In this document: positions 3,003-54,913 of the stretch, one piece after another
Layout: the number at the start of each line of letters is the position of its first letter
Numbering within the stretch: position 1 is the first letter of the stretch
Origin: a virus
Virus record (IMG/VR): IMGVR_UViG_3300036766_000644
Location: 48,685-112,684 of that record
DNA: 64,000 nt
Direction: 5' to 3' (one strand)
Notes under the pieces: generated by a model
The model's database searches: none
What the model was told of the DNA's origin: nothing
The model's input: the letters and a program-made list of their open reading frames with translations, nothing else
Translations under genes and position numbers: made by a program

Positions 3003-3452
3003 TCACTCATCCGACGCAACAGGCGCTGTCCGAGAAGAATCGTACGCCTTACCAACCGCCTGCCCAACCGGCGCCAAAAGCATTCCGCCGCCAATCTGTC
3101 CTGCCATTCCGAGAGGGCCTCCTAGCAGAGATCCTGCGGAGCGGCCAAGCAAATCCCCGACGAGCTCTCCACCACCGGTATCAGGATTAGCGCGGGATTG
3201 AAGAAAAGAACCCATGATGGGCCAGGCCAACGCCGCGGCTATTGCACCGGGGCTCCGAGGGAGCGTCTTGGTGATGAGCCCCTTGCTGGGGTGGAAAAGC
3301 TGCCCTTTTTGAAACTGCTTCAGCGCTTCACGCGGCTGTCCGAGCCCTTGGCGCTGTACCTCTTCGAGGTAGTCGTCCCAGCCGCCAGCGCACTTCACAC
3401 CGAAGGAATGCAGAGCCGCACGGACACCTGCGGATTGCGCCAGGGGTAGCAT
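3003..3452 (-). CDS. hypothetical protein, Gly-rich C-terminus (149 aa)
   Basis: ORF whose ATG overlaps the stop of the upstream beta' C-half gene (TGATG). Confidence 0.55.
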   Translation of the reverse strand: MLPLAQSAGVRAALHSFGVKCAGGWDDYLEEVQRQGLGQPREALKQFQKGQLFHPSKGLITKTLPRSPGAIAAALAWPIMGSFLQSRANPDTGGGELVGDLLGRSAGSLLGGPLGMAGQIGGGMLLAPVGQAVGKAYDSSRTAPVASDE

Positions 3453-5251
3453 CAGTACCTTCCCTCAGGGCCCATACCGAATTCGGACCCATATGCGTAA
3501 GCCGAGACTGGGTGGACGCTGTGGCGATCCGATACTGCGCCAGTGCGAGCCCCCTGTAGGAGACTGTCCTTCAAGTAGCGGTGGGCGAGTCGCGCCATCC
3601 AATCGGGGTGCAGAAGAGGATTGCGGGCCATCGGGCGCATCATGAACTCAACCCGAGGGAGATTCGTCGCAACACTGACGTGGGTGACGCCGTGTGATTT
3701 CAACGTCGCAAGTATCGACGCCGAAAGGGGGGTGCCCGCGGTGAAGTGAAGAACTTCTTTGCCCAGCACGCCACCAGCGGCCTGCGCCAGGGGGACTTCG
3801 TGGCTGCTCCTCCCCGCTGCGTCGCGGTACACGTCGTACGGGAGTACTTCACCTTTTAGGAGTTCAGGATGTGCGTCGGAGTGATCGAGAACCTTGATGT
3901 GGTTGAGATCTGCGCGGGCGACCAGTTCAAGGTGCCGCTTATCGACATTGATTCCTTGACCGGAATAGATGTCATGAAGTGTGTCGACGAGATATTGCCG
4001 CCCCACTCCGAAACCTTTGTGTTGGATGAGCTCATCTGGCTTTGGGATCCCTTCGGAGAGGACATCACCGGCCTCCACCTTCTGGCCCACGGTTACGCGA
4101 GGCATCAAATTCGGGCCTACGTAGTGTTGTACCGTATCTACGTAGATATAGGTACCGCCGTGAGACGCGGGCGCAATCTTTGTGACCGCCCCCGTATGTT
4201 CCGCCAAAGCGGCCTTGTTGATGAAGCTCTGCGGAACCTCGAGGAGCTGTCGGATCCCAGGCATCCCCTGAAGCTTCGATGAGCTCCCCTTCAAGGACCG
4301 CCCACCGTGCTTAGCGCCTAGCGCCATTTGCGTCAGCGGCTCTGAGATCGACTGCGCGGCACGGACACCGACGTTGATACCGATGGCATGCGGGCGCCCA
4401 CGCTCATCTAGGCCCTGGCACTTCCGGCAGATCCCCTCAGGGGCGGCGCAGGACATCGGAGACCGTACGTAGACCGTCTTGACGTTGTCCCGTAGTTTGG
4501 ACGCTACGGCCTTGGTCACCAGGTCGTTGCGGTGGAGCCCCGCCTGGTCCTTCGACAGGTATCGATCGACGATGTTTCCGTCGGAGCTTGCTAGGGCGAT
4601 ACCGTTCAGCGTCCCGCAGTCATCCTGGGTGATGACCAACGGGTACATGTTGTTGGTCATGATCTTCAACATGTCGCCCGGCTCAGAGATGGAAATGGCC
4701 GCCTGTACCGTGGCGTGGCGAACGTCGTTACCCGCGGTCCAGTAGTCCGCGGCGCTGAGCCCTTCGGCATAGGACTTGTGCACCAGCCACGGATGAATTG
4801 CGCCGTGACTCGTCGTGACCGCCACCGGGGAGGTGACCGTCTTCATCAGCTGTTCCATGTTTCCACGGGCTCCGGAGAGAGCCATCGCGGTCATGGTGCC
4901 GGGGTGCTGGGCTGTCTGAGCTTTGAGCGCCGCTTGGGCGTCGAGGATGATCTTCTCTCGTGCGTCCCTAGTAGTAGCGTTCTTCAGCGCCGCGATGGCG
5001 GGGAGCATGATCTTGTCGCGGGCGTGGTACATGGGTGTGATGTCGTCGATTCCGACGGACACCCCCTCCAGCGTCGAGATGTCGTCGCCAAGAGCTTTCA
5101 GCTTGCTGACGATGTCAACGTACGCCGTAGGGTCCTCGTTGGCGAGGTCCAACATCTTCTGCGTGAGCTCCTTCTTGCCCATCGCGCCAGTGATGTGTTG
5201 GTGCGCGGGGAGAAGATCGTTGATCAGGTATTTCCCCAGCGTCTGAGCCAT
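3452..5251 (-). CDS. RNA polymerase beta' subunit, C-terminal half (split beta' homolog, 599 aa)
   Basis: SGARGNMEQLMKTV resembles SGARGS..Q. GVRAAQSISEPLTQMALGAKH resembles the AAQSIGEPGTQLTMRTFH trigger-loop and bridge region. SPMSCAAPEGICRKCQG resembles C..GVCAHCYG. Confidence 0.85.
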   Translation of the reverse strand: MAQTLGKYLINDLLPAHQHITGAMGKKELTQKMLDLANEDPTAYVDIVSKLKALGDDISTLEGVSVGIDDITPMYHARDKIMLPAIAALKNATTRDAREKIILDAQAALKAQTAQHPGTMTAMALSGARGNMEQLMKTVTSPVAVTTSHGAIHPWLVHKSYAEGLSAADYWTAGNDVRHATVQAAISISEPGDMLKIMTNNMYPLVITQDDCGTLNGIALASSDGNIVDRYLSKDQAGLHRNDLVTKAVASKLRDNVKTVYVRSPMSCAAPEGICRKCQGLDERGRPHAIGINVGVRAAQSISEPLTQMALGAKHGGRSLKGSSSKLQGMPGIRQLLEVPQSFINKAALAEHTGAVTKIAPASHGGTYIYVDTVQHYVGPNLMPRVTVGQKVEAGDVLSEGIPKPDELIQHKGFGVGRQYLVDTLHDIYSGQGINVDKRHLELVARADLNHIKVLDHSDAHPELLKGEVLPYDVYRDAAGRSSHEVPLAQAAGGVLGKEVLHFTAGTPLSASILATLKSHGVTHVSVATNLPRVEFMMRPMARNPLLHPDWMARLAHRYLKDSLLQGARTGAVSDRHSVHPVSAYAYGSEFGMGPEGRY

Positions 5252-6286: not shown

Positions 6287-6928
6287 TCAAACGCCCGCTT
6301 GAGGAGTGGTTCCACCGGCGCCTCCTTCGCAGAACATCATCCGGCGTAGATCGTCTGCGTGCTGTTGGTCAGTGAGCGCCATCTGCTCGAGCATCACTTT
6401 GATGGAGAGGTTCTCCCCCGCCATGAGCGATAGGTTACGCAGCTCTTGGATGATCTGCTTCTCAGCCTGAAGCAGGACCATGAAAATCTGGTGGAGGTCG
6501 TTGATGTCCGGGATGGTGCTCACCTTAGGCGTGGGCTCACCACCTAGAGCCGTGATCTTCATCGTGAGGTGGTAGGCGTCTTCACGCTCTTCCCCTGCGT
6601 GCTCCTTGAAGTGGTCGTAGATGACGTCTCGGAAGTGAGCCCGGATCCGGTCACCGTAGTTGATGTACATCATCATCGTGGTGTACTTGAGCTTGAGCAG
6701 CTTCAGGCACTGCGCCACGATCTTTTCCTGAGGGACGGCGAACAGGCCTTCCTCGGGGGAGACGGCCAAGGGATGAACACCCTCAGATGCGGTGGGCTGG
6801 GGGATGGGAACTTCAGCTCCGGCGGCGTCAGACATCTGCGCGTCAGGGGATTGTACTTGCTCCGTAGGAACCTCAATGGCTCCGTCTGACGCGATCTTGT
6901 AGCGCTGCGTGTATACCTTGGTCGTCAC
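6287..6928 (-). CDS. hypothetical protein, possibly ferritin-like four-helix bundle (213 aa)
   Basis: ORF overlapping the beta-beta' stop by 4 nt. Periodic E/H/Q residues (…EHAGEEREDAYH…EKQIIQELRN…LEQMALTDQQHADDLRRM) resemble ferritin or rubrerythrin-like metal ligands. This is a weak call. Confidence 0.55.
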   Translation of the reverse strand: MTTKVYTQRYKIASDGAIEVPTEQVQSPDAQMSDAAGAEVPIPQPTASEGVHPLAVSPEEGLFAVPQEKIVAQCLKLLKLKYTTMMMYINYGDRIRAHFRDVIYDHFKEHAGEEREDAYHLTMKITALGGEPTPKVSTIPDINDLHQIFMVLLQAEKQIIQELRNLSLMAGENLSIKVMLEQMALTDQQHADDLRRMMFCEGGAGGTTPQAGV

Positions 6929-9900
6929 GGGCCCACCTCTACTTTGGTGTTGAGATTTATTTCACCACGCTTGTACGCCGCGTAAGCGTCTGCCTTCGTC
7001 TTGAAGTGGTGCGTTTTGGCGTTGTCCGACCCTACCGCCTTCGTTGCCAAGTGTATCCCTAGCATAGCCTCCATGCGGGGAGCGACCATCAGGCTGTTCT
7101 TCTCTCGGTCGGCGAACAGGAGGTTGGAGAGGGTCAGCCCCTTCACCTCCTGCACAGCGCCTGGGAGGACGGGGACGTGAATCTGGAACGTGTCCCCGTC
7201 GTAGTCGGCGTTCATCCCAAGCTCGATGAAGGGGTTCACCCGAATCGTCTTACCGGCGACAGGGACGGGGTTTGCGCCAACGAAGCCGTAGCGGTGCAGC
7301 GTAGGGGCCCGATTCACCATGACGGGGCGTTCCTTGATCTCCACCATCAAGGCTGTGAGAGCGGCAGGATGCTTCTCCTCTACCATCTCCTTCGAACGAA
7401 CGGCGTTGAACCCCTGGCGCACGAGGCGGGCGATGACGAACTTGCCGTACATCCCCCACAACATGTCGATCGGCAGGCCAATCTCGTCCATGCCCAGAGC
7501 GCCATCGGGAGCGATGGTCCCGCGGCCAGAGACGTCCTGCTGGCGCTTCATGATCTTTTTCTGGAAGAAGCTGCTCTTCGGCGTTGTCTTCCCGGTGATG
7601 TGCTCGAGGAAGCCCTTCACATTGCGCTTCAGGAGCTTCGGGTTGTCCGACTCATGCGTCCCGATGACGGCCCCCACGGCGTTGAACAGATTCTGCCGAA
7701 GCTTGGCGTGTTCATCGGGTGGGAGGATCGGTGACTCAACCTGCCGCTGCAGCGCTTTGTTGTGCAGCATGGCGGCGGCGTAGAGGTAGTTCGCGTCACC
7801 CACGACGAGCTCTGAACCGCCCTTCCCCGCTTGCACTGGGCGCATGATGGGCGGGAGGACCGGGAGCTTGGTCAGCACGTAGGCGTCGCCAGGCTTGAGC
7901 CCCTGCTTGTTCAGCGCGGAGAGAAACTTGAGATGTTTCACCGCGTCGTCCAACTTGACACCACTGCTCTTTTTGATCGATTCTCGAATAGTCTGCATCT
8001 GGCCAGGAACGTCGATGGCGTTCAACTTCTTCTTCACTGCGTCGGCCCCGTGCTGGAACCGGAACAGGTCGAAGTCTTTCGCCGTCATTCCTAGAAGTCG
8101 CCGAGCTGGCTCTGCGAACACAGGGTTTACGACGGACTCGGCCAAGTCGATGTGGCTCCAGCGGGTGCCGTCGGTACCTCCGGTAACCGCCGGGTCGAAC
8201 AACCCACCACGCTCCGCGGCTAGATCTTTGGCGCGGACAAGCTTCTCGTTTTGGATGGCCCCAGAGGACATTCGCATGATGTCCTTGTCCGTGAGAGGCG
8301 ACAGCGTGCTGAGACTCCCTCGAGTGTCCACCTTGACCCCGGCCCCGTGCAGCATGCCGATGAACTTGTCGTAGGCGAACGTCGTCTTCAGCGGAGGCAG
8401 GGGTAGCCCGAGCTGGATGGCCTTCCAGAACTCGTCGTTCTTCTGGCTCTTGATCGCAGCCGTCTCGCGAAGAACGTTGCGGGCGTTGTGCGCTACGAGG
8501 GCGTTGAACTCCATCTTACCGACGGCCTTCGCACCTTCGTCGCCGCCTTTGATGGGCTGCTGATTTACGTCGTACGCCCCAGTACCGCGAGCCGCGAAGT
8601 TGGTCTCGGTGGTCTTGAACAGGCGGAGCACGTACTGCGGCCCGACGAGGATGCCGGGGATCTTCTTGCCCGATACCGGGTCGAACACCGTCTCCTTGTC
8701 CTTGACCCCGTGCTCCTTCATGAGGTCCTTTGTCCACTGCACGTTGTCCCGCCCGGAGAAGTTAGCCACAGCGATCGGTTTACCGATCTTCCTGGCCACT
8801 TTCGCGACACACGTCTCGAGGACTTGAGCCGGGTTGATGCGGGAGATGATGCCTGCGGACGTGTACAGCACGTCCAGGGGTTTACCGCCCTCGTCCTGTA
8901 GCATCTGATGGTCAGGGATGATGCGGGAGACGACGCCCTTGTTTCCGTGGCGTCCCGTGAGCTTGTCGCCTACGCGCATGGGCTCCTTGGTACGCACTGT
9001 GACGAGGACCCGTTTGTCGGTGACGTGAACGTCTGTGACGTCCCCCTCGAAGTCGTGGTCCCAGGTGCGGACGAGCTCACGGTACGGGTTAACGAGCGTC
9101 TTCTTGAAGTTGGCCAGCAGAGTGTCCGACGCGGACAGCTTTCCCTTGGTAACCCCGGCGATCAGGATGTCATGCGGCATGACCTTCATGCCTTTGCGCA
9201 CGACGCCGTTCGCGTCGAGCTTGCGGTACTGGTCCGCGGTGTACTTCGGACCGTAGTACTGGCGGTGCATTTCACGCCCCACGACGGCGTCCCGCTCAAC
9301 CTCCAAAACCTCCTTGTACATGTGCTCCGACGTCAACTTGTCGGCGGCTCCCTCGGAGATGACGACAGCGTCATTCGAGTTCAGCCCGTAGTACGGGATG
9401 TACCCGATGGTCATGTTGCGCCCGAGCGCGAAAGCACCATCGCGGGTGAAGTTGGAATCGGCGAGGCGCTGATTCGCTTCGACGTGATCCCCGGGCTTAA
9501 CGAGGATGTCGTGGTGAAGGTACGTCTTGGATGCGAAGGGAAAGTTGTCCTCGTAGGGTACGCGGATGAGATCTGCTTCGGCTGCGGCCTTCTCGCGCTG
9601 ACGCTCGGAGAGGTAGTCGTCCTGGAACTCGTCCCACGTGTACTCTTCGAGAGACCCAAAGCCCCACTCGGGACCGTGTTTCTGGTACGCCTCCTTCGCA
9701 GCGTCCTTGGAGTCGAAGCCGACCATGCACTTGTCTTCATCGTGCGACCCGTCGCGCTTCTTTTGGCGAACGACGTACACGTGATCGAAGGTACCGTCTT
9801 CCTTCAGGTAGATGTCCACCGTCTCGCCATCATCCCCAACCGTCTTGGGGATGTGCCCGTAGGCGAGAGACATCTTCTTCTCCCACTTCTTGCCCTCAAG

Positions 9901-11736
9901 GGAGACGCCAGAACGAATGTCCCCAGGCTCGAGCTCGAGCTTGAAACACAAGCCCTTGATCGTCTTTTGGCGCTTGACGGCGCCGCCCCTCTTTTCGAAG
10001 GAGTTCTTTTCGAAGACGAAATCCTCGGCGTGCTTCTTCCCGCTTGGGTCGATGTAGATGTACTGCCCGTCGATCCGAACTACCTTCCCCGAAACAGGGG
10101 CGAAAGGAAGCTCCATCAACGCCAGGACCTTCTCCCAGCTCGAGTGCTCCTTACCTTCAGAGTCGCGAATGCCGGATTGAACGAGAGGCGCCTCGCGATG
10201 TACGAGGGGCAGCGCCTGCGTCATGGACTTGCCTCCCATGATGCCGCGGTTCCCCTGCACGGACTCCAAGAAGGGGACAAGGTTTGTCGCCGGGGAGTAG
10301 AGGTGAGAAGCGTCAACGAGGGCGTGCGTGCACGTCGATGCCGGAACCATTTCGACGGTTCCTTTGCGCATCGCAGAGATCATCCCAGACGTCTTCTGGT
10401 TCGGGAACGAGATTACGGCGTTGCCCATCTCCGCCGCGGACAGGAGCGTGTTCTTCCCAGTCTTGAGATCCTTCACCGGGGCGTAGAGGTTGCCGCGCTC
10501 ATCCCTGTGAGCGTACATCGCGGTGCGAATGTCGATGCCCGCTCGGAAAGTCTCCGACGTCCGCACCGGGTCAAGAAGCCCGAAGTGGCTTGAGTGAATC
10601 GTCCGAGCTTCCGCCGGGATTGCCCGCTCATTGGCGATGCCGCCTTCGCCCAGCGAGGTCACGCGAGCTGCGTGGTCGATTGCCTCCATGGGGTTGATGT
10701 GCGTCGGGATCGAGCTCAGCTGAGATCCTGTGAGGAAGCTTCGAATGCCTGCGGAGAACGGAGACGCGGGGAGGATCGTCCGGAGCTCCGTCTTGTGCGT
10801 TGCCCGGCCCTTCACCTTGCTGGCGAGAGCTCGTGCATCCAGGGTGATGCGCTCTTTGATGAAGTCGTCAACGGAGTGGTACGTCTTGAACCGAAGAGCG
10901 TCGCGGTCGTCGGTGTCCTCATTGTTCTTGTAGACGTTGAGGAGGCGCTTCGAAGCAGTCAGCAGGGCGAGGGGCGTCACCGACGCGAACTCGTGCCCGA
11001 GTGTTTCTTTAGTCACCCCAGGGTCCATCGCTGTCGTCGAGTACGCCGCTTTCACAGCCTCCAGCTGTGTCTCAGGGTTCGTCGCCGTTCGCTTGGCAGG
11101 ATGGACCAGTTTCTCGTAAAGCTTGGCGAGGTGTTTGTCGTGCTTTCCGTCGAATTCCGCCTCATTCTTTCCCGCGACATCAGAGCCCCACGCCGTAGCG
11201 ATCTCCCCGTGAGCCGTACCGAGCTTACGGAGTACTGAGTAAAGAGGAATCGCGGTGGTCCCGTACTCGATGTACGGGTGACCCTTTGTAGGGTCCATGG
11301 ACAAGCGGAAGTTCATGCCCTTCGACAAGTTGAAGGCTGCCTCGAGCTCTTCGTTTCCGCGACGCCGAGTGTACACACCTGGCTTGAGGCGCAGCTGGTT
11401 CGAGACGTTGTACTCGTTGCCGTCCAGGATGAAGGTGTGGCGCCCTGTGAAGTAGGGGAGGTTCAGCAGCGTGAAGTTCTTGACCTTCTCGAGCTCCTTG
11501 CCCGCTGCGTCACGAAGGACGACGGTGCCTTTGACCTGCTCGAACAAGGAGCCGCCGCTGAGCAGGGCGTTCTTCTGATCCTTCGGACCGAAGTCTTTCT
11601 CGTGAACCTTTAGATCTGTGAGCTCGATACGCTTATCGCGTAGCGCCAAGGGGAAAGCCGTCTTGAGCGCCTCCAGCGCCTTCGCCCGAATGTTGGTTCG
11701 GCGAGACTCCGGGTCTGTCATCACAGGGGTCAGCAT
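6925..11736 (-). CDS. fused RNA polymerase beta + beta' N-terminal (catalytic) half, 1603 aa
   Basis: Beta hallmarks GRHGNKGVVSRIIP and GKMEFNALVAHNA (cf. GEMEVWALEAYGAA). Beta' hallmarks follow in the same frame: VLPPIMRPV, NRAPTLHRYGFVGANPV and the NADYDGD Mg-binding loop (cf. NADFDGD). Highly diverged from cellular enzymes. Confidence 0.9.
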   Translation of the reverse strand: MLTPVMTDPESRRTNIRAKALEALKTAFPLALRDKRIELTDLKVHEKDFGPKDQKNALLSGGSLFEQVKGTVVLRDAAGKELEKVKNFTLLNLPYFTGRHTFILDGNEYNVSNQLRLKPGVYTRRRGNEELEAAFNLSKGMNFRLSMDPTKGHPYIEYGTTAIPLYSVLRKLGTAHGEIATAWGSDVAGKNEAEFDGKHDKHLAKLYEKLVHPAKRTATNPETQLEAVKAAYSTTAMDPGVTKETLGHEFASVTPLALLTASKRLLNVYKNNEDTDDRDALRFKTYHSVDDFIKERITLDARALASKVKGRATHKTELRTILPASPFSAGIRSFLTGSQLSSIPTHINPMEAIDHAARVTSLGEGGIANERAIPAEARTIHSSHFGLLDPVRTSETFRAGIDIRTAMYAHRDERGNLYAPVKDLKTGKNTLLSAAEMGNAVISFPNQKTSGMISAMRKGTVEMVPASTCTHALVDASHLYSPATNLVPFLESVQGNRGIMGGKSMTQALPLVHREAPLVQSGIRDSEGKEHSSWEKVLALMELPFAPVSGKVVRIDGQYIYIDPSGKKHAEDFVFEKNSFEKRGGAVKRQKTIKGLCFKLELEPGDIRSGVSLEGKKWEKKMSLAYGHIPKTVGDDGETVDIYLKEDGTFDHVYVVRQKKRDGSHDEDKCMVGFDSKDAAKEAYQKHGPEWGFGSLEEYTWDEFQDDYLSERQREKAAAEADLIRVPYEDNFPFASKTYLHHDILVKPGDHVEANQRLADSNFTRDGAFALGRNMTIGYIPYYGLNSNDAVVISEGAADKLTSEHMYKEVLEVERDAVVGREMHRQYYGPKYTADQYRKLDANGVVRKGMKVMPHDILIAGVTKGKLSASDTLLANFKKTLVNPYRELVRTWDHDFEGDVTDVHVTDKRVLVTVRTKEPMRVGDKLTGRHGNKGVVSRIIPDHQMLQDEGGKPLDVLYTSAGIISRINPAQVLETCVAKVARKIGKPIAVANFSGRDNVQWTKDLMKEHGVKDKETVFDPVSGKKIPGILVGPQYVLRLFKTTETNFAARGTGAYDVNQQPIKGGDEGAKAVGKMEFNALVAHNARNVLRETAAIKSQKNDEFWKAIQLGLPLPPLKTTFAYDKFIGMLHGAGVKVDTRGSLSTLSPLTDKDIMRMSSGAIQNEKLVRAKDLAAERGGLFDPAVTGGTDGTRWSHIDLAESVVNPVFAEPARRLLGMTAKDFDLFRFQHGADAVKKKLNAIDVPGQMQTIRESIKKSSGVKLDDAVKHLKFLSALNKQGLKPGDAYVLTKLPVLPPIMRPVQAGKGGSELVVGDANYLYAAAMLHNKALQRQVESPILPPDEHAKLRQNLFNAVGAVIGTHESDNPKLLKRNVKGFLEHITGKTTPKSSFFQKKIMKRQQDVSGRGTIAPDGALGMDEIGLPIDMLWGMYGKFVIARLVRQGFNAVRSKEMVEEKHPAALTALMVEIKERPVMVNRAPTLHRYGFVGANPVPVAGKTIRVNPFIELGMNADYDGDTFQIHVPVLPGAVQEVKGLTLSNLLFADREKNSLMVAPRMEAMLGIHLATKAVGSDNAKTHHFKTKADAYAAYKRGEINLNTKVEVGP

Positions 11737-11819
11737 GTCCGTAAGTATAGCTCCCTTTTTGGTATCAGTAGCTGAGTCCCCACTTAGGGCTCAACTCGCA
11801 GTATCACCGGAGGGTGAAC

Positions 11820-13216: not shown

Positions 13217-14944
13217 TTACATCGGCTGCGGTTGGCCAGCTTGCGCTTTCGCTTGGGCACCTTGTTGGTTCTGCATGTCCTCGAGCCGCTGAACGACCAC
13301 GGCGTACATGACGGCGTCCTCTGCTTGGAGACTGTGCATCTGTGACCGCCGAGACCCCGGGTCGAGGCCCATGAGCTGTTGTACGATCTGGTCCGCTTGC
13401 GCGATGACCGCCTGCTGATCGTAGTTGAGCCCTGACGCCTGCTGCGCCTGGTTCTGCACCTGCTGCGCCAGGTTGTTCTGGAGCTTCTTGACCTCGTTCT
13501 GTACGCGCATCTGGTGTCGTGTCTCGTCGAGCGTCTCTTGAAGGCGCTTCTCCCGCTCCTCGTCGAGATCGATGTCGAGCTTCTCCATTACGGTGGTCAT
13601 CGACACGTACTGCTGCCCCTGCTGACCGGTGGCCATGTTGATGAGCATCTGCTTGGACTCGGTATCGTCCACCATCTGAAGCGGCGTGAGCTTGGCCTCC
13701 AGTTTCTCCCAACCGAGGAACTTCGCCAGGCTGTCTGCGTACCACTGCAGCAGATCGTTCATGTCATCGGCGTGGCCTTGTGTCTGGTTCTGGATCAGGC
13801 GGAGCGTGGCCTCCATGCCCGCCTTGGTCAGACCGCCGTACAGGAACTCCTGCGGGATGCCAAGCGCCGCCATGATGCTCTTCTCGGCTTCCTGGAGCTC
13901 GCCGATGGTGAGCATCGCACGCCCGTCGCCGCCCAAGTTCGATACGCCAAGAGCAACAGGCGCCATCATGATGTGCAGAGGGTCGCGACGCCAACGACGG
14001 ATGTTGGTCTTCATCTCGTCCTGCCAGCGGGCGAGTGAGATCATCTGGGTGAAGTCCTGCTGGCCGTTCTGTGCCGGGTGCAGGATGCGCATCGGCACGA
14101 CATGCTCCAGCGCGATGGCTTCGTTCGCCTTGCGCAGGACCAGGGTGTAGAGGAACAGCTTGATGGTCGAGGCGAGAGGAGGGAAGCCCCACTGCTGGTC
14201 GATGCCTGATGGGCTTGCGACCTTGATGTGGAAGAGGGCGTCCTTCTCGAAGCGGAAGGTCTTGTTGTCGCGGATGTTCTCGAGGAACTCCATCGGCATG
14301 GAGTTGATGAGGTGCTTCGACCCCGACTTAACCTGGTCTTTGATGTCCTGCGGGATGTTGTAGTAGTACACCGACTGACCCGTGATCGGGTTGTAGTCGA
14401 TATCCATCAGCTTCGGGTCCCAGCGGATGATGTGCACCTTGCTGGCGGCCAGGATCTTCCGGTCAACCACCGTGCCCTGCACCATCTTCTTGCACTTGTT
14501 GCAGTGGTAGGTGAACGTCAGCTTCTTAAGCTCGAACTTGTAGTCGACGTGATTGATCGACGTCATCGTATGACAAGTCGGGCATTTGAGGCTGCGTACG
14601 AAGGGCTTGTAGATCGAGGTGAAGTGGTTACCGTAGACGTGCTTGTCCAGGGACGCCATCAACAGAGCGGACTTGATCTTTAGCGTCTTCTCGAAGAGGC
14701 GTCGGTAGTTCCGCCGCAGCGCTTCGTTCGACGTGCCGTACTCGATGTTGGTGACGACGAGCTCACCGAATTTACGCAGCGCGGCGTAGACGTGGGCGCT
14801 ATTGTAAAGTAAATATTCGCACCATTTAAAGAGGTCCTTGAGCTTTCGTGGGACGAAGCCCGTGAGAAAGTCGAAGGCCGGGTTGGGGTGTGACGCAGCC
14901 CTGTCGAAGGCCGACATCGAATCTGTGTTCGGATTATCCGCCAT
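13217..14944 (-). CDS. hypothetical protein with CPTC…CNKC zinc ribbon and Gln-rich coiled-coil C-terminus (575 aa). A portal-like role is speculative.
   Basis: Long ORF overlapping the HNH gene by 11 nt. I recognised no catalytic motif. Confidence 0.75.
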   Translation of the reverse strand: MADNPNTDSMSAFDRAASHPNPAFDFLTGFVPRKLKDLFKWCEYLLYNSAHVYAALRKFGELVVTNIEYGTSNEALRRNYRRLFEKTLKIKSALLMASLDKHVYGNHFTSIYKPFVRSLKCPTCHTMTSINHVDYKFELKKLTFTYHCNKCKKMVQGTVVDRKILAASKVHIIRWDPKLMDIDYNPITGQSVYYYNIPQDIKDQVKSGSKHLINSMPMEFLENIRDNKTFRFEKDALFHIKVASPSGIDQQWGFPPLASTIKLFLYTLVLRKANEAIALEHVVPMRILHPAQNGQQDFTQMISLARWQDEMKTNIRRWRRDPLHIMMAPVALGVSNLGGDGRAMLTIGELQEAEKSIMAALGIPQEFLYGGLTKAGMEATLRLIQNQTQGHADDMNDLLQWYADSLAKFLGWEKLEAKLTPLQMVDDTESKQMLINMATGQQGQQYVSMTTVMEKLDIDLDEEREKRLQETLDETRHQMRVQNEVKKLQNNLAQQVQNQAQQASGLNYDQQAVIAQADQIVQQLMGLDPGSRRSQMHSLQAEDAVMYAVVVQRLEDMQNQQGAQAKAQAGQPQPM

Positions 14945-15389: not shown

Positions 15390-15435
15390 GTGCTATACTT
15401 AGCTTAACCTAACAGGAAAAACAAACGGAGCGTTC

Positions 15436-20646: not shown

Positions 20647-20786
20647 ACCCTCTCGTACTCAAAGTCATCGGCGTCCTGGCGGCGTACCGAAAGTGGTATG
20701 CCGCCGGGATGACGGATAAAGAGATCTCCCAGAAGATCCGCGAGACGTACCCGGCACAAGCTCGGCCGTTCCGCCCTACTCGGTAA
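20643..20786 (+). CDS. hypothetical small protein (47 aa)
   Basis: GTGA overlap with the parB-like stop. Low confidence. Confidence 0.3.
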   Translation: MNPLVLKVIGVLAAYRKWYAAGMTDKEISQKIRETYPAQARPFRPTR

Positions 20787-21609
20787 AGACGTCGCGAGCG
20801 CCACCAACCTGGTTCGCAACCAAGTAGACTCGTAGCTGGGCCATCGTATCTTTTTTGATCTGGCGTACTCTCTCGGAGGACAAGTCAACTCGCTTTGAGA
20901 TTTGTCGGAGGTTCTTCGGTTCCTCCCGGGCTCCGAAGTACGCCAGGACGATGTACTTGTCTCGCTCTCGTAACGCCAAGCCGTCTAGCGCGGAACGGAG
21001 CATGTTGAACCCATAGGAATTTACGAGGTCGCGTTCGAGGGTGTTGTCGCCGTGCCCTGCGTCGTCGATGGCATCAACGACGTCAAGCGTAACGTGGGCG
21101 GCTTCCACCTCAGTACCCCCGCCATGCTTTCGTAGCGCTCGTAGGGCCTTCTGTTTATGCGCGGGGACACGAATGATGCCCTGGCTGTCGAGCTCTTCAA
21201 GAATCTTTTCACGGACCCACCAGGCGGCGTACGTCAAGAACTTGGTGTTTCTCGTCGTATCGAACCGGTCCGCGGCTACCAACAGACCGATGTTCCCCGC
21301 GGAAATGAGCGTCGTCAAGACGTCGCTCTCGAAGTTAACGCCTCGAGTACGGTACGCATATTCCTTGGCCACCTTCACCACGAAACGAAGCGCGCCGGAG
21401 ATGAGCCGGTCGCGTGCTTTGAAGTTTCGAGGAGCACTGCACTTGGCGCAGCGAACCAAAGAAGACCCTAAGGGGTAGGTGTTTCGACAGGACGAACAGG
21501 TTCGGTACGCCGCGACAAGAGCGGCCTCTTCGCTCTGTGAAACAAAGGAGTTACCTCGCATGTCCGCAAAATACGCCTCAATGACTCGGTCACCGTCGTC
21601 GTTGCTCAT
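20776..21609 (-). CDS. sigma-70 family sigma factor with N-terminal Cys4 zinc ribbon (277 aa)
   Basis: Region 2: LISGALRFVVKVAKEY…NIGLLVAADRFDTTRNTKFLTYAAWWVREKI (cf. LIEANLRLVVSIAKKY…[31 protein letters not shown]). Region 4 HTH: LRERDKYIVLAYFG…LRQISKRVDLSSERVRQI. N-terminal CSSC…CAKC. Confidence 0.85.
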   Translation of the reverse strand: MSNDDGDRVIEAYFADMRGNSFVSQSEEAALVAAYRTCSSCRNTYPLGSSLVRCAKCSAPRNFKARDRLISGALRFVVKVAKEYAYRTRGVNFESDVLTTLISAGNIGLLVAADRFDTTRNTKFLTYAAWWVREKILEELDSQGIIRVPAHKQKALRALRKHGGGTEVEAAHVTLDVVDAIDDAGHGDNTLERDLVNSYGFNMLRSALDGLALRERDKYIVLAYFGAREEPKNLRQISKRVDLSSERVRQIKKDTMAQLRVYLVANQVGGARDVFTE

Positions 21610-21710
21610 TCCCTAATGATCCTCGCTTTTGAGCTTGTACCGGGCCCTCTCGTGGTGTAGGGTCCGGCCCGCAAAAACCAACTACCACGCAAAACAACGG
21701 AGTGTCACCC

Positions 21711-22784
21711 ATGGCTAAGAAGCCTGATGTAGCCCCTGCTGAAACCACCGCTGCAACGCCACCCGCCGTAGAGTCGCCTGCTGCGCCTGTTGAGGCAGCT
21801 CCCGCCGCTCCGTCTGCCATCGTCCCCGCTACGGACAGTGTCTCGCCGGAGTTCGCCGCACGCAAGGCCCTCGCTCTGCGTCTCCCCGAGGGGGCAAGCA
21901 GCCGGGCCCTGATGCTCAAGCGCCCCACCCCGAAGGAGCTCCTGGACCTCGTCCTGGCGCTACCTGAGGCAAGTCAAGAAGCAATGATGATGCTGGTTTC
22001 GAAGACCAACCCGGAGAAGCAGGGGTTGCACGCAGCATCCAGCGGCTTCGAACCCACTGAGCTGAAGGTGTTCCACGGCGTGGGCAACGACCCCACGCGT
22101 CCGCGGCAGACGTTGCCTGGGCAGTTCTACTCCAAGGACTCCCGCGTCCTCGGGGAGAAGTTCAACGCGGTTCCCCTGGCCATCTACGAGGGCCAGATCC
22201 TGTGGCCCCCGAAGGTCCCTGGAGCCGCCGCCGAAAGCACCGCGCCCATCTGCGTGTCGCTGGACCGCAAGATGGGGAGCAAGTACGGCTCCTGCGCGAC
22301 CTGCCCGCTGTCCCCGGAGAACCGCTCCTACAACCAGGGCGGCTGCATGCGGGAAGTGACGGCGTACCTGCTCGATGAGCCGATGACGTCGGTCTTCGAG
22401 CTGAAGTTCAGCAAGACCAGCGAGGGCGCTGGCCGGGCGCTGATGAACATCCTGAAGAAGTCGAACACTCTCTGGGATCGCTGGTTCACCTTCGAGGCCA
22501 AGGAGCGGGTCGAGAAGGGCAACAAGTGGTACGTGATCCAGGCGGGGACCGTGGCCGACGCAGCGAAGGTCAACACCAACCTGGCCTTCCACGCACTGTT
22601 CACCGGGCTGTCCAAGGTCATCGACGCGGACATCTACTACCCGGCGCTGGCCAACACGTACGACCGCGCGAAGAACAGCACGGAGACGGCGGCCCCGGTA
22701 GGTGGAGCAGCGGCACCGTTCGATGAGAAGGCGTTCCTCAAGGGTGACACTGAGGCAGCGCCGGACTACTCGAAGGACGTCTAA
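21711..22784 (+). CDS. hypothetical protein with Ala/Pro-rich N-terminus (357 aa). A recombination or ssDNA-binding partner of the downstream nuclease is speculative.
   Basis: ORF divergent from the sigma gene. GGAG lies 8 nt before ATG 21711. The track uses GTG 21702. Confidence 0.7.
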   Translation: MAKKPDVAPAETTAATPPAVESPAAPVEAAPAAPSAIVPATDSVSPEFAARKALALRLPEGASSRALMLKRPTPKELLDLVLALPEASQEAMMMLVSKTNPEKQGLHAASSGFEPTELKVFHGVGNDPTRPRQTLPGQFYSKDSRVLGEKFNAVPLAIYEGQILWPPKVPGAAAESTAPICVSLDRKMGSKYGSCATCPLSPENRSYNQGGCMREVTAYLLDEPMTSVFELKFSKTSEGAGRALMNILKKSNTLWDRWFTFEAKERVEKGNKWYVIQAGTVADAAKVNTNLAFHALFTGLSKVIDADIYYPALANTYDRAKNSTETAAPVGGAAAPFDEKAFLKGDTEAAPDYSKDV

Positions 22785-27420: not shown

Positions 27421-28290
27421 GTTAGTTGGTCGCGAGATCTTGCATCGGAGAATATCCGACGCCTCTGTAGCAGAGGCCGTGTACTTCGGAGATTTTGAAG
27501 CCTAGCTTCTGCAGCAGCAGTAGGTCTGCCCGAGTACACCCAGATGTCTCATGAACTGTTCGGTTGCACGCACCACCAGGGTGCTGCCACATACGACACA
27601 GACAAAGAAGAATCGCGACAGTCACGCAGTAAAAGATCTTGCTCCGGTACCTTTCCGGCGCCTCCGTAGTGGAGGCACTACCCCCGGGTCTCCTCACAGC
27701 CTAGCTGTATCGAAGACCAGGAGGTCTTAGCGACGATCGTAGCCGCGGGTGTTGCCCGCAGCTCCTCGAGGGCCCCAGTCGCCGAGCTGCTCGAACTGAT
27801 TGAACAAAGAAGATCTTGCTGTAAACTTTCCTGCTCCGGTACCAGTCCGGCGTCTCCGTAGTGGAGACTTTTACACGGCGGTGTCTGCGCGAAGCCTAGC
27901 TTCGCTGGACACCCAGGGTCCAAGACATTACCGGATCCTCCCGCGGCGTCGAGCTCGAGTACCGTACCTCGGGTCTCCGGCGGCCGCTAGTACGATTGAA
28001 CAAAGAGGAAAGATCACGTAGTCCGTAAATTCTTGCACCGGTACCTACCCGGCGTCTCCGTAGTGGAGACATTGAGGCCGTGGGTGTATGAGAGCCTAGC
28101 TCTTGCACACCCAGGAGGTTTCTTACCGCGGCGCCAATGATGGCGTCGTCTCGAACTCCTTCGGCCCCTTGATGACCTGCAGCTCTTCGAGATGGAAAAC
28201 AAAGAAGAATTTACGCAGTACCGTAGTGGTGATTCGTTTTGTGTGCCTAGGCACCGTCAGCGTAGTGCTGACTAGATCTCTTAGCTGCCC
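27421..28290. repeat. tandem array of ~4.5 units of ~200 nt, candidate structured ncRNA genes. Units start near 27421 (truncated), 27602, 27803, 27999 and 28198.
   Basis: Each unit shares AACAAAGA(A/G)GA, AGATC, CTTGC.CCGGTACC, CCGGCG(C/T)CTCCGTAGTGGAG(G/A)C, GCCTAGC, CACCC(A/C)GG and TCGAACT. No ORF is consistent across units. Two hairpins show compensatory changes between units. Confidence 0.8.
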
Positions 28291-28800: not shown

Positions 28801-30414
28801 CTACGCGTAGAACTTGAGATCGTTCATCACGATCTTGTGGGCGAACCATCCGAAGAGCTGCGCGTGGAGGCAGTCGTCGGGGAGCTGGGGGCTGTGCCTC
28901 CATACCTTCTTGCCAGACGTCGTCACCTCCTCGTAGATGTTGAGGATGTCCTTGATGGCCTCGCGAGACTCTTCGCGTGGCGGGTACACGGCTGCGCCAC
29001 GCTTCAGGAACATGAGGTAGTTGTCGATGAGAGTCGTACGGTCAGCGAGATAGCGGTCCAGCCCGTTCCACTTGATGGGCTGAGCCAGAGCTCCGTACTG
29101 CACCATTGTCACCCGGTGAGCGCCCAGGCGGGCACGGAGGGTGGCGTTCGGTAGGGCGCCCTCACCAGCGTCTCCGATGACCATGGCGACGTTGTAGCTC
29201 AGGCAGATGCGGGCGATGTCTTCCACGTCCACAACGGCGTTGTTGCCAGGGTAGACGCGGTAGTAGAGCGTGCGGAGCTTCTGCGTGCTGGGGTGGAAGC
29301 CCCAGATCCACAGCACGGTGCGAGAGGTTCCGGTGGTCCCACCACCAGACCAGTCAACACCTGCAACCGTGACTGAACACCCATCCAGGTTCTTGTTCGG
29401 CGTCGGTGAGATTGCGTCGCCTGTGCATAGCGCCTCGAGCTCCTCCAGGGAGATGAGGCGACGCCCTACGGCGTCTGAGACACCGAGGACCTCGTTGCGG
29501 AATCTCGCAGACGAGAACATGTCGTGGTCGCGAAGGATGTCGTCCCAGCGTGCTTGAGCATCCGCTTGGGCGTTTGGCTTCTCCACGGTATTTTTTACGC
29601 AGGACGGGATGTTCAGGGGCATGATCAACTGCGGGATGTGGAACCCCTTCACGGAGTGCTTCCCCGTGTCTTTGTCCACCTTCTGCATGTCGATCCACTG
29701 CCCTGTACGGGGGTTCAGGACGTGGCCACAGTTGAGGCAGATGGGCCCGTGCTTCCCCAGCGACTTCTCGCTCGTGACGATGTTGTACTTGCTGCAGCCC
29801 TCACACTTCATCACCCACTCTGTCTGAGACGACTTGTCCCAGAGGTACTGGATGCTGGCCTCCATCGTCTTGGGCGTGCCCGCGTAGGTCTCGAAGCGGA
29901 ACTCGCTGTTCTTCATGCAGGAATTGATGACCGGGACAACTGAGTCGTACAACATGTCCTGAAACTCGTCGTAGCTCACCCGATCGGCGGAGAAGCCACG
30001 GGCGCGGTCTGCGTCGTCGCAGGCGTAGGTGAAGGCGTTCTCCGAGCCGTTGGTGTAGGATCGGTGCAGCACGCGGTCGGCGTGCTCAGGAGACTGGAAG
30101 TACTTTTTGATGATGGGCGAGTAGGAGAGCGTCTTCCCTACGCGAGTGTTAGAGAAGATCAGCGTTTGTTCTTTTGATGGAGATACGTAGTACTCCTTGA
30201 AGTGTGGCAGGGCCACGCTCTCAGAGATGATGAAGTTGGCCAGTGACGTAGACTTGGCCACCTGTCTCCCGCACATCAGGAGAGTGGACTTGTAGCGCCC
30301 GTTGTAGATGTTCCGGTACATCGGGTAGTCGTCGAGGCTGAACTTGGACCCATCCAGCCAGAGCAACCGCTCAGCGATGTCCGAGAGCTTCTTTGTTTTG
30401 ATCGTCTGTTCCAT
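28801..30414 (-). CDS. terL: terminase large subunit (537 aa)
   Basis: Walker A LMCGRQVAKST. Walker B VSYDEFQDM. C-terminal nuclease region VAGVDWSGGG…IGDAGEG. Confidence 0.9.
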   Translation of the reverse strand: MEQTIKTKKLSDIAERLLWLDGSKFSLDDYPMYRNIYNGRYKSTLLMCGRQVAKSTSLANFIISESVALPHFKEYYVSPSKEQTLIFSNTRVGKTLSYSPIIKKYFQSPEHADRVLHRSYTNGSENAFTYACDDADRARGFSADRVSYDEFQDMLYDSVVPVINSCMKNSEFRFETYAGTPKTMEASIQYLWDKSSQTEWVMKCEGCSKYNIVTSEKSLGKHGPICLNCGHVLNPRTGQWIDMQKVDKDTGKHSVKGFHIPQLIMPLNIPSCVKNTVEKPNAQADAQARWDDILRDHDMFSSARFRNEVLGVSDAVGRRLISLEELEALCTGDAISPTPNKNLDGCSVTVAGVDWSGGGTTGTSRTVLWIWGFHPSTQKLRTLYYRVYPGNNAVVDVEDIARICLSYNVAMVIGDAGEGALPNATLRARLGAHRVTMVQYGALAQPIKWNGLDRYLADRTTLIDNYLMFLKRGAAVYPPREESREAIKDILNIYEEVTTSGKKVWRHSPQLPDDCLHAQLFGWFAHKIVMNDLKFYA

Positions 30415-30869
30415 CAGGAGCTCAAAGATAATTGAAGGTTGTGCAGGCTTAACTCAATGGCCCTAGTGAGTAGAGCCTTTAAAATACCAGGGTCTTCGTG
30501 TGCGTGGCCAAAAGCGCGGTTACAACCACCGTGAGCTAAGCCGCGCACAACATTTGTTTTATGGCAGTGATCGACAACGGGGAGCTCAAACATAGGACGT
30601 TCACACAACCAGCACCGCCCCGCCTGAGCGATCAACATCGAGTGCCAGCGCGCCGTAGTTATCCCATAAAGACGCTTAAGATTTCTTTCCAGCGCCTTGG
30701 CGGGATCTTGAGCGTAATAAGAAGATTTGCGCCCCCGTATGCGTTCAGGGTGCCGCCTACGATACGCAGCATTGCGCCGCCTGTTGCCAGCAACATCCGC
30801 TTTCCTGCAAAGGCGGCAAGGGCCTGACGGCATGCGGTCCACAGATCCACACTTTTTGCAGGGATTCAT
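30414..30869 (-). CDS. HNH endonuclease (endonuclease VII-like) immediately upstream of terL (~152 aa)
   Basis: CKKCG…CRLC plus CWLCERP…VDHCHKTNVVRGLAHGGCN. Start taken at MNPCKKC, because the longer track ORF would overlap the divergent AAA+ gene start. Confidence 0.8.
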   Translation of the reverse strand: MNPCKKCGSVDRMPSGPCRLCRKADVAGNRRRNAAYRRRHPERIRGRKSSYYAQDPAKALERNLKRLYGITTARWHSMLIAQAGRCWLCERPMFELPVVDHCHKTNVVRGLAHGGCNRAFGHAHEDPGILKALLTRAIELSLHNLQLSLSS

Positions 30870-30894
30870 TTCACTCACCACCACAGAGGTTAGC

Positions 30895-45869: not shown

Positions 45870-46271
45870 TTACGGAATGGCGATGGGGCCTGTGACGCCG
45901 ACGAAGGCGGTCGCAGTGATGTCATACTCTTTACAGAGAGACGTCATGCGTGAGATCAGAGTTGACGCAAAGTCCTGTGCGAGCGCCACCGATGCGAAAT
46001 CTTTGGTCACAGAGGACAGCCGGTAGTACGGGAGATTGGCCCCCTGCGCCGCGAGCAGCGAGTTGGGGTAGGTCTGTACGTCCAAGACGGTCGCTACATG
46101 ATCGAAGAGTCCGTCCGCGACTTTGAAGACGAACACGGAGGCCGCGGCGGGGCTCTCAGGGAAACCCGTCGAAGAGTTGACAACATCCACGACGCGGTAG
46201 GGCGCCGCTACGGATAGCGCCGGGGGAACTGATGCTGTCCGGGTCTGCGTGTGGTTGAGCGTGGCTGCCAT
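45870..46271 (-). CDS. hypothetical protein (133 aa)
   Basis: Minus-strand ORF immediately upstream of 44760..45857. Confidence 0.55.
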   Translation of the reverse strand: MAATLNHTQTRTASVPPALSVAAPYRVVDVVNSSTGFPESPAAASVFVFKVADGLFDHVATVLDVQTYPNSLLAAQGANLPYYRLSSVTKDFASVALAQDFASTLISRMTSLCKEYDITATAFVGVTGPIAIP

Positions 46272-46315
46272 AGTGGCCCAAGTATAGCTGAAATCTGAAT
46301 CTCGAGGGGAGAGGG

Positions 46316-54437: not shown

Positions 54438-54439
54438 AG

Positions 54440-54765
54440 GCTGAACCCCCGGCTGAACCCAAGGACGGTTTTCATGGGTACAGCCGTAAGGCGATGAACC
54501 GATTCATCTTTTAGTCAAAAAAAGGCCAAACTGAACCACTGAACCCACTGGACCCTAAAGTTGAAGACTTGGCTGTGATGTACATAACGGCGAGTCACTC
54601 ATAATATGCAAGCAAGGCTCATGCCAAAAAGAGGTCATTTAGCTGAGGTGTCAAACAGAATCTCCTATTTACTATTCAGGATGGTTCATGGGTTCAGTTT
54701 GGGGTCGGATTTAAAAGATTTCAAGTAGTTATGGCTGAACCCATCTTGCGAAGTGCTGAACCCTC
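54440..54765. repeat. iteron cluster (CTGAACCC in both orientations, at least 6 copies) flanking an AT-rich stretch. Candidate replication origin or regulatory region.
   Basis: CTGAACCC at 54441, 54453, 54539, 54735 and 54756. GGGTTCAG at 54690. CTGAACCA and CTGGACCC variants. AT-rich 54560-54730. Located right after the primase/helicase gene. Confidence 0.55.
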
Positions 54766-54913
54766 CCTTGCCCACACGTTCCTACTCCCGAGTCGTGCTG
54801 TTTCGCCTTCCGGCACCATGGTCTCGTCCTGGAACCCGTGGTCGACGACCTGACTCGAGGACGGGCACGCAACCCACTCAGGGTGTCCCCCAGGGCCCCT
54901 AGAAAGCGTTCCG

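Follow-up and report, generated by a model that had tools for sequence, protein, structure and literature searches.

A Cys4-ribbon sigma factor encoded near a phage's own multisubunit RNA polymerase: family membership, likely core partner and candidate promoters

Introduction

Which RNA polymerase core does a sigma factor serve when the phage that encodes it also carries a multisubunit polymerase of its own? The question is raised by a viral genome from IMG/VR (record IMGVR_UViG_3300036766_000644), of which a stretch of 64,000 nucleotides was analyzed (positions 48,685 to 112,684 of the record; hereafter the window, to which all coordinates refer). The window encodes a sigma-70 family protein with a putative Cys4 zinc ribbon, as well as a polymerase in which the beta subunit is fused to part of beta'. 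The element is a tailed phage of ~188 kb that belongs to an Arash-like lineage and has Salmonella phage Arash and Vibrio phage D69 as distant relatives; at the DNA level, a search of GenBank gave no phage close to the window. An interpretation of the DNA made before the present analysis (the sequence-only reading) had described both the sigma factor and the polymerase, and had asked whether the sigma acts on the host core or on the fused enzyme.

According to reviews, large phages either encode their own multisubunit polymerase without recognizable sigma, alpha or omega subunits, or encode sigma homologs for use with the host core (PMC7598289, PMC7824862, PMC13282480). Unlike these reviewed phages, the lineage described here has both a bacterial-type core and a canonical sigma. 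In the literature, we found no study of this polymerase-sigma system beyond annotations and a proteome table in the Arash genome paper.

Our preferred answer, which we consider somewhat better than an even bet, is that the protein is a non-virion sigma that would bind the phage's own core and direct it to a class of promoters that comes into use once the first phase of infection is over, most likely those carrying the motif C-TATACT. We infer the timing of the sigma, its binding partner, its binding of zinc and the promoters that it reads from comparison with relatives and with characterized systems.

Identification and domain structure of the sigma factor

The gene and the segments of its product are located as follows.

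20776..21609, minus strand: sigma-70 family gene (open reading frame (ORF) of 277 amino acids (aa) with an ATG start; appears monocistronic)
21502..21591, minus strand: region 1.2-like helices, aa ~7-36 (DRVIEAYFADMRG...SEEAALVAAYR; profile alignment and model)
21439..21498, minus strand: putative Cys4 zinc ribbon, C38-x2-C41-x12-C54-x2-C57 (cysteine invariance; predicted local distance difference test score (pLDDT) 91-93)
21181..21423, minus strand: region 2 (2.1-2.4; Pfam Sigma70_r2, alignments to SigA and RpoS)
21127..21177, minus strand: region 3.0 helix (IIRVPAHKQKALRAL) with the invariant K154 (alignment)
20815..21045, minus strand: region 4 (4.1 and the helix-turn-helix of 4.2, ...LSSERVRQIKK...; Pfam Sigma70_r4, alignments to region 4.2 of SigA and RpoS)

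The gene is the sole minus-strand gene between a plus-strand block that runs from SNF2 to ParB (ending at 20646) and a second plus-strand block that begins at 21702/21711, in agreement with its earlier description as a lone gene divergent from the 21711 block. The exact protein (P0001) is present on a contig of 188,569 bp, and its relatives are found on contigs of 168-196 kb.

The sequence-only reading had assigned the protein to the sigma-70 family on the strength of regions 2 and 4, and had proposed a search with hidden Markov models (HMMs) for the two domains as the check. This search bears the assignment out: Pfam Sigma70_r2 (PF04542) matches aa 101-143 with 34.4 bits (cut-off 24), Sigma70_r4 (PF04545) matches aa 213-260 with 36.6 bits (cut-off 24.1), and the sigma-70 superfamily model of NCBIfam, TIGR02937, scores 72.8 (cut-off 42.9). 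The protein is also matched by PHROG 351, 'RNA polymerase sigma factor' (E = 6e-30), and a sequence search of solved structures returned sigma chains only.

Placement within the family is less straightforward. The best partial matches among the NCBIfam models are RpoS, RpoD/SigA, SigB and RpoH, all of them far under the equivalog cut-offs. The two RpoS models score 99.9 against 378.7 (TIGR02394) and 87.1 against 394 (NF004207), the FliA (sigma28) model NF005413 scores 55.8 against 201, and every RpoD/SigA model stays far below its cut-off. Region 1.1 and regions 3.1/3.2, which are features of primary (group 1) sigmas, are missing from the protein, and the presence of a region 1.2-like segment and a region 3.0 helix sets it apart from the extracytoplasmic function (ECF, group 4) sigmas. 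An AlphaFold2 model built on 29 relatives (mean pLDDT 77) retrieved holoenzyme chains of sigmaS, sigmaA and sigma32 as the top matches in Foldseek (probability 1.00, E ~1e-7), at low TM-scores of 0.33-0.39; the linker from region 3.0 to region 4 (aa 165-183) is modeled with low confidence (pLDDT < 50). Both the NCBIfam models and Foldseek place the best matches among the group 1-3 sigmas. The gene product is sigmaS-like, yet by curated thresholds it is not an RpoS, primary, ECF or FliA sigma. Of the comparison groups suggested earlier (ECF, FliA, SPO1 gp28 and T4 gp55) it resembles none, the likeness being to sigmaS and the group 2 sigmas. The Joint Genome Institute (JGI) label for the P0001 family, 'RNA polymerase primary sigma factor', is misleading, because the protein scores below the threshold of every primary-sigma model.

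At the N-terminal end, positions 9-36 of the sigma profile align with residues 46-73, in region 1.2, of M. tuberculosis SigB, and the model has helices at aa 4-18 and 25-36. Region 2.2 reads LISAGNIGL and region 2.3/2.4 reads FLTYAAWWVREKI, with the -10-melting residues Y127, W130, and W131 conserved among the relatives. K154 in the region 3.0 helix is aligned with K173 of E. coli sigmaS and E458 of sigma70, and is invariant in 118 relatives. Some 45 aa of regions 3.1/3.2, the remainder of domain 3, are missing relative to RpoS. Among the DNA-reading residues of regions 2.3/2.4, 3.0 and 4.2, Y127, W131, K154, E246, and R249 are invariant. The predicted order of region 1.2, zinc ribbon, region 2, the helix of region 3.0 only, and region 4 corresponds to a trimmed sigmaS/group 2-like sigma. 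The protein is almost certainly a functional member of the sigma-70 family that carries a structural Cys4 ribbon.

A Cys4 ribbon in place of the non-conserved region

CSSC (C38, C41) and CAKC (C54, C57) contain all the cysteines of the sigma protein. The four are invariant in 29 relatives (46-84% identity), in which the intervening residues vary freely; a second set of 89 relatives has C38, C54, and C57 in every sequence and C41 in no fewer than 90%. When all relatives are taken together (46-96% identity), the arrangement CxxC-x11-17-CxxC is kept in 114 of the 118 sequences, with a spacer of exactly 12 residues in 103 of these, a pattern of cysteine conservation that is far beyond chance. The model places short strands at the ribbon knuckles (pLDDT 91-93). 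The ribbon is basic, with a mean net charge of +3.8 over ~24 aa, or about half of the net charge of the whole protein. The Pfam zf-LSD1 model (PF06943), at 15.5 bits, stays below its cut-off of 20.2 and reflects no more than a generic CxxC resemblance. Judging from its sequence, the ribbon presumably binds zinc.

In the profile alignment, the ribbon falls on the short variable stretch between region 1.2 and region 2.1, and therefore takes the place of the sigma non-conserved region. In a relative with two ribbons, Pfam gives two sub-threshold matches, one to Sigma70_r1_2 just before the ribbons and one to 'Double zinc ribbon' on them. Thus, a Cys4 ribbon ahead of region 2, as previously noticed, is conserved and modeled as such, but it is an insert at the junction of regions 1.2 and 2.1 and not the N-terminal domain that it had been taken for. 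We found no report in the literature of a zinc ribbon in the non-conserved region of a sigma factor.

The number of ribbons differs between clades. Arash Gp196, the sigma of Vibrio phage D69 and one metagenomic clade have none, the clade of the window has one, and a third clade, with proteins of 330-350 aa, has two in tandem. In a family-profile search that covered 1.84 billion cluster representatives, ribbons at the junction of regions 1.2 and 2.1 were limited to the closest hits (6 single-ribbon and 12 double-ribbon representatives, all E <= 1e-55). A small group of related 'AAGN/SAGN' sigmas (P0168, P0210 and P0243), distinct from these hits, carries a CxxC-x13-CxxC ribbon after region 2.2 rather than before region 2.1, which indicates independent insertions at more than one loop of this sigma lineage.

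The RNA polymerase of the phage

Two genes account for the polymerase identified in the window.

6925..11736, minus strand: fused polymerase subunit of 1603 aa, consisting of a beta part, an InPase insert and the N-terminal part of beta' (Pfam, motifs, alignment to solved beta' chains)
3452..5251, minus strand: C-terminal part of beta' of 599 aa (Pfam Rpb1_5; match to Arash gp216, 33% identity)

The fused subunit joins beta to the N-terminal ~550 residues of beta'. It contains the Pfam domains Rpb2_3 and Rpb2_6 (beta) and Rpb1_1 and Rpb1_2 (beta'), and the catalytic motifs GDKLTGRHGNKG and NADYDGD are intact, which confirms the multisubunit polymerase with a beta/beta' fusion that the sequence-only reading had recognized. 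It shares 36% identity over 85-91% of its length with the proteins of Salmonella phage Arash and Vibrio phages D69, D181 and D148, and the phage core is of the bacterial type (~30% identical to bacterial beta/beta'). Matches of the segment to 'subunit gamma' chains place the split point in beta' near the gamma/beta' split of cyanobacteria.

Set against beta' of E. coli and B. subtilis, the phage beta' retains the clamp helices, with the first helix changed from RRVINRNNR in bacteria to AAAMLHNKA in the phage. The bacterial beta' residues in this comparison are those known for the E. coli polymerase. A flap-tip-like helix, D-x-LL-x-N/L-x-K-x-L, is conserved across all clades. With its catalytic motifs, clamp helices and flap-tip-like helix kept, the phage core looks sigma-dependent. 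No alpha, omega or other initiation factor is found among the neighboring genes.

An InPase domain (PF18823, type I inorganic pyrophosphatase-like) is inserted at aa 587-706, in the beta part of the fused subunit. The orthologs in Arash and Vibrio D69 do not have this domain, which could serve to remove pyrophosphate directly at the polymerase. Immediately downstream of the fused polymerase gene lies a gene for a ferritin/Dps-like protein (6287-6928, minus strand; PF00210, 2.2e-9), which overlaps the polymerase gene by 4 nucleotides (nt) and is therefore probably co-transcribed with it.

The N-terminal zinc-binding domain of beta', formed in E. coli around C70/C72/C85/C88, is missing in every clade examined. 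That the sigma ribbon compensates for this loss was considered and, as a simple correlation, rejected: the domain is absent from the window, from Arash, from D69 and from three metagenomic clades, at zero, one and two ribbons. Polymerase insertions or deletions that track the number of ribbons were likewise sought from the beta flap to beta' residue ~550 in 17 paired contigs (N-terminal beta and beta'-C left out), and none were found.

Conserved gene order and the region 2.2/clamp interface

The sigma and polymerase genes belong to a conserved neighborhood that includes the portal and large terminase genes.

13217..14944, minus strand: portal protein of 575 aa (matches Arash gp204, 'portal protein'; within the conserved sigma-SNF2-portal-polymerase block)
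28801..30414: large terminase of the lambda GpA type (TerL)

More than 30 IMG/VR contigs keep the same order, with TerL, PolA, PD-(D/E)XK and p360 on one side of the sigma gene and ParB, p94, PD-(D/E)XK, SNF2, portal, p165 and the fused polymerase on the other. The portal is 93% identical in contigs in which the sigma is 80% identical, and the synteny persists down to 28-38% identity of the sigma and 46-52% identity of the polymerase. The order in Arash is identical (gp196 ... gp204 portal ... gp206), and the window sigma is therefore the positional ortholog of Arash Gp196, with which it shares 42% identity over regions 2-3.0.

In region 2.2, the Q/E-E-G-N of sigmaA and sigmaS is replaced by S/A-A-G-N in all of the polymerase-linked sigmas; x-E-G is retained by the sigmas that the same scan retrieved from unrelated phage contigs. 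In bacterial holoenzymes, region 2.2 contacts the beta' clamp helices. The changes on both faces of this interface, in region 2.2 of the sigma and in the first clamp helix of the phage beta', fit co-adaptation without proving it. The comparative evidence leans toward the phage core as the partner, and the sigma probably works with that core.

Sigma factors and polymerase subunits in Arash virions

Mass spectrometry of Arash virions identified the fused subunit Gp206 as the most abundant protein (3516 spectra), together with Gp216, the beta'-C subunit (1210 spectra), and the sigma Gp10 (24 unique peptides); Gp196 is not among the 116 listed virion proteins (PMC10585845). The Arash proteome thus points to two sigmas, one packaged along with the core and one left out of the virion.

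Gp10 and the window sigma show no significant similarity to each other. A Gp10-like gene was not detected in the six reading frames of the window, which covers about one third of the genome, by either phmmer or HMM searches. Homologs of Gp10 exist elsewhere, on contigs that could not be tied to the lineage of the window; the Gp10 alignment was too variable for a scan of the loci, and a scan with a back-translated motif gave other contigs only.

Candidate promoters

The following sites illustrate the motif that we consider a candidate target of the sigma.

11743..11751, minus strand: GCTATACTT, sigmaS-type -10-like element preceding the fused polymerase gene (7 nt to the ATG)
15392..15400, plus strand: GCTATACTT (with TG upstream: TGCTATACT), preceding the SNF2-to-ParB operon, whose end lies beside the sigma gene
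46280-46288, minus strand: GCTATACTT, before the gene at 45870..46271

The hexamer TATACT occurs eight times on the two strands of the window and is preceded by C in all eight cases. Seven occurrences lie outside called genes, in a window of which 11% is intergenic; the eighth lies 15 nt inside an ORF with a TTG start, the real start of which is probably downstream. Six of the eight face identified starts, namely those of the fused polymerase, the SNF2-to-ParB operon, the portal, the VapE primase-helicase and the genes at 33109..~34095 and 45870..46271 (both on the minus strand). The GCTATACTT that precedes the polymerase gene is conserved at the corresponding position in nine related contigs. 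Ahead of the polymerase gene and of 45870..46271, the 7-9 nt that separate the element from the ATG contain no Shine-Dalgarno sequence, so that leaderless mRNAs are predicted for these two genes.

No common -35 element is visible at the C-TATACT sites. A scan for classical sigma70 promoters with -35 and -10 elements found one in the window against 4.1 expected, a result that is uninformative or mildly negative. A C at position -13 beside a TATACT-type hexamer is a hallmark of sigmaS promoters, and is contacted by K173 in helix 3.0 (PMC3367168). As K154 of the window sigma is aligned with this lysine, the sigma is a plausible reader of the C-TATACT sites; we put forward this assignment tentatively, as a possibility that falls a little short of even.

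A correlation between ribbons and TATACT hexamers, with 2-5 hexamers per 20-kb locus in the one-ribbon clade versus 0-1 in the ribbon-less clade, was not relied upon, because the zero-order expectation is ~4 per locus and only 2-3 independent clades are compared. A second motif, CT[TGA][AG]TACC[AC]AA, is found upstream of the polymerase gene (~11759-11771, minus strand) in all three sigma clades (loci L005-L038), and in the form CTTGTACC (21634-21642, plus strand) the motif is directed at the p360-PolA operon as well. It may define a second promoter class; the motif T[TG][GA]TACC alone is not enriched outside genes (6 of 27 occurrences).

Genomic surroundings

On either side of the sigma gene, two non-coding features were noted.

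21610..21701: divergent control region of 92 bp between the sigma gene and the p360-PolA operon, containing CTTGTACC and the sigma leader CAAAAGCGAGGATCATTAGGGA
20678..20705: hairpin GGCGGCGTACC-GAAAGT-GGTATGCCGCC between the convergent ParB and sigma genes, a possible bidirectional terminator (weak evidence)

The leader CAAAAGCGAGGATCATTAGGGA-ATG is conserved. The hairpin at 20678..20705 is present in the minimum-free-energy fold, in a region that is unexceptional (z = -1.75), and a U tract is absent. A hairpin upstream is no better than shuffled sequence.

The gene divergent from the sigma gene (21702-22784, plus strand) encodes a 360-aa protein, p360, without a match in Pfam or PHROG. It is syntenic with the sigma in all clades (21-78% identity), has a Cys-rich stretch (CVSLDRKMGSKYGSCATCP...GGC), and its gene is followed by those for a Cas4-like nuclease and PolA; a DNA-binding function in replication or recombination is possible. 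In addition to the family A DNA polymerase, the window encodes a PrimPol, a VapE-type primase-helicase and a class II ribonucleotide reductase.

A 49-nt element (...AAGATCTTGCTCCGGTACC...CCGGCGCCTCCGTAGTGGAG) is present four times at 27421-28122, at intervals of 192-202 bp (~197 bp). The copies sit between an RNase T gene and the terminase region and overlap four minus-strand ORFs of 70-91 aa. They could reflect small genes that were duplicated in tandem along with their control sites, or else a site for packaging or replication. Tandem Repeats Finder reported nothing between 27.0 and 28.8 kb, the repeats there being dispersed. Six copies of CTGAACCC, in both orientations, are found at 54438-54913, a non-coding stretch of 476 bp that directly follows the VapE-type primase-helicase gene; the resemblance of the repeats to iterons makes this stretch a candidate origin of replication.

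A reverse transcriptase gene (37160-38356, plus strand; Pfam RVT_1, 6.4e-15; PHROG 2825) is followed by an overlapping ORF of 488 aa without a family match, and the locus may be a diversity-generating retroelement. A MoxR-like ATPase (30727-32172, plus strand; PHROG 1297) and a vWA/metallopeptidase protein (34146-35771, plus strand; DUF2201) correspond to the chaperone pair of group 2.2 jumbo phages (Iyer et al. 2021).

Discussion

In the mechanism that we propose, the window sigma would be the non-virion sigma of an alpha-less phage polymerase (fused beta::InPase::beta'-N plus beta'-C). This polymerase would enter the cell with the DNA and with another sigma, one packaged in the virion, as can be surmised from the Arash proteome. 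The window sigma would be made after infection, dock on the beta' clamp helices and the beta flap tip of the phage core, and redirect it to further promoters, of which the likeliest are the -10-only C-TATACT sites ahead of the genes for the polymerase, portal, SNF2 and primase-helicase. C(-13) would be read by K154 in the manner of K173 of sigmaS, and the basic ribbon may make an additional contact, either to the clamp or to DNA that lies upstream of the -10 element, substituting for the -35 interaction.

Several points weigh against this proposal. Synteny and co-occurrence of sigma and polymerase would be equally expected if a sigma of the same phage used the host core, and the link of the sigma to either core is drawn from sequence comparison. 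An alanine at the position of sigma70 E407 also occurs in FliA-type sigmas, which bind the host core. A second, virion-packaged sigma was not demonstrated for the lineage of the window itself. With respect to the promoters, C-TATACT is also near what the host sigma70 or sigmaS would read, and the virion sigma is another possible reader; the motif is lacking upstream of the sigma gene in the subclade of the window, and the ribbon-less clade has the lysine but almost no TATACT in the syntenic 20 kb. Finally, abundant non-structural enzymes were also detected in the Arash particle preparation (PMC10585845), so that presence in or absence from the list of virion proteins is soft evidence.

Among the alternatives, the one that survives best, although we regard it as unlikely, is that the sigma redirects the host core to phage promoters and that the phage polymerase uses another factor, such as a Gp10-like virion sigma. 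Use of the host core is the known norm for phage sigmas (PMC7598289, PMC7824862), the canonical core-binding regions are all kept, the protein resembles sigmaS and SigA, and C-TATACT resembles ordinary bacterial -10 elements; moreover, it is Gp10 alone, and not Gp196, that travels with the phage polymerase in Arash. Less easily reconciled with this alternative are the SAGN signature, which is confined to polymerase-linked phage sigmas whereas sigmas without this gene block keep EG, and the preservation of sigma-polymerase synteny across very deep divergence. The phage core also has the elements on which a sigma docks, and another non-virion factor was not identified. A sigma that binds both cores, the host core early and newly made phage core later, as a hand-over factor, could be accommodated by its conserved canonical regions and by a phage core that is clearly bacterial-type (~30% identical), but since region 2.2 and the clamp-helix surface have each diverged, specificity for two cores is less likely, and we consider this reading improbable. 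That the sigma is mainly a competitor or decoy which sequesters the host core or a host regulator, with the ribbon as a protein-binding or redox-sensing module, has very little probability in our view: zinc ribbons often mediate protein contacts and the residues between the cysteine pairs vary among relatives, but the DNA-reading residues are among the most conserved positions of the family, which is unexpected for a pure decoy.

The closest known counterparts of the system proposed here, a sigma that would act on the phage core, are found in Arash (Gp196, WGL32647.1) and in D69 (VPHD69_0246, 'RNA polymerase sigma factor'), where the sigma lies in the same neighborhood of SNF2-type helicase, portal and fused beta/beta'-N and has the same A-G-N/C signature in region 2.2. 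The kind of phage is shared as well, with genomes of ~180-190 kb (Arash, a myovirus, 180.8 kb; Vibrio phages D69, D181 and D148, ~187 kb). The sigmas of Arash and D69 differ in that cysteines are absent from the loop between regions 1.2 and 2.1, a Gln stands at the position of K154, and region 4 is too divergent for detection by Pfam, whereas that of the window is canonical; their polymerases are without the InPase insert, unlike that of the window. In the Arash paper, Gp196 is merely listed (PMC10585845).

SigmaS (RpoS) and group 2 sigmas such as M. tuberculosis SigB are the best matches in sequence and fold, with regions 1.2, 2, 3.0 and 4 in the same order. The lysine at the position of K173 is shared with sigmaS, the C-terminal tail of the window sigma (...VFTE) resembles that of RpoS (...LFRE), and the candidate motif C-TATACT fits the preference of sigmaS for C(-13). 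In contrast to these proteins, the window sigma has a ribbon in the place of the non-conserved loop, has lost ~45 aa, carries S-A-G for Q/E-E-G, and is phage-encoded near the phage's own polymerase.

T4 gp55, SPO1 gp28/gp34 and the sigmas of cyanophages and group 2 jumbo phages are likewise phage-encoded sigma-70 proteins that alter promoter specificity during infection. These phages are without a polymerase and use the host core, and their sigmas have no zinc ribbon at the junction of regions 1.2 and 2.1 and show 25-31% identity to the window sigma in tblastn. The role that we propose is the one fulfilled by phiKZ gp68 and AR9 gp226, dissociable specificity subunits of phage multisubunit polymerases, and phiKZ and AR9 also separate virion and non-virion programs, as in our proposal. 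Gp68 and gp226 are without sequence similarity to sigma, in contrast to the recognizable sigma-70 factor of the window, and the phiKZ and AR9 cores consist of 4-5 very divergent polypeptides, unlike the fused, bacterial-type core found here. The N-terminal Cys4 ribbon of TFIIB/TFB, near the docking surface of the polymerase, is an analogy only, as fold family and position are unrelated.

At the level of the lineage, a more speculative extension, to which we give distinctly less than even weight, is that phages of 170-195 kb, widespread and mostly uncultured, would possess a full transcription apparatus of the bacterial style, with a virion-packaged, alpha-less fused core that is used by at least two successive sigma-70 factors. 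The non-virion sigma would have one or two DNA-contacting ribbons in place of the non-conserved region and serve -10-only C-TATACT promoters, some of them yielding leaderless mRNAs, which would amount to a sigma cascade on a viral core.

Should the sigma turn out to work simply with the host core, it would be a rather ordinary phage sigma in which the insert is unusual. With both a bacterial-type core and a canonical sigma, the lineage offers a tractable model for the assembly of a minimal alpha-less core and its initiation, for sigma switching on a viral enzyme and for the role of the ribbon, a model that the culturable Salmonella phage Arash opens to experiment. The series of zero, one and two ribbons at a single loop is a natural experiment on the non-conserved region, and a small, orthogonal sigma-core pair would be of interest to synthetic biologists.

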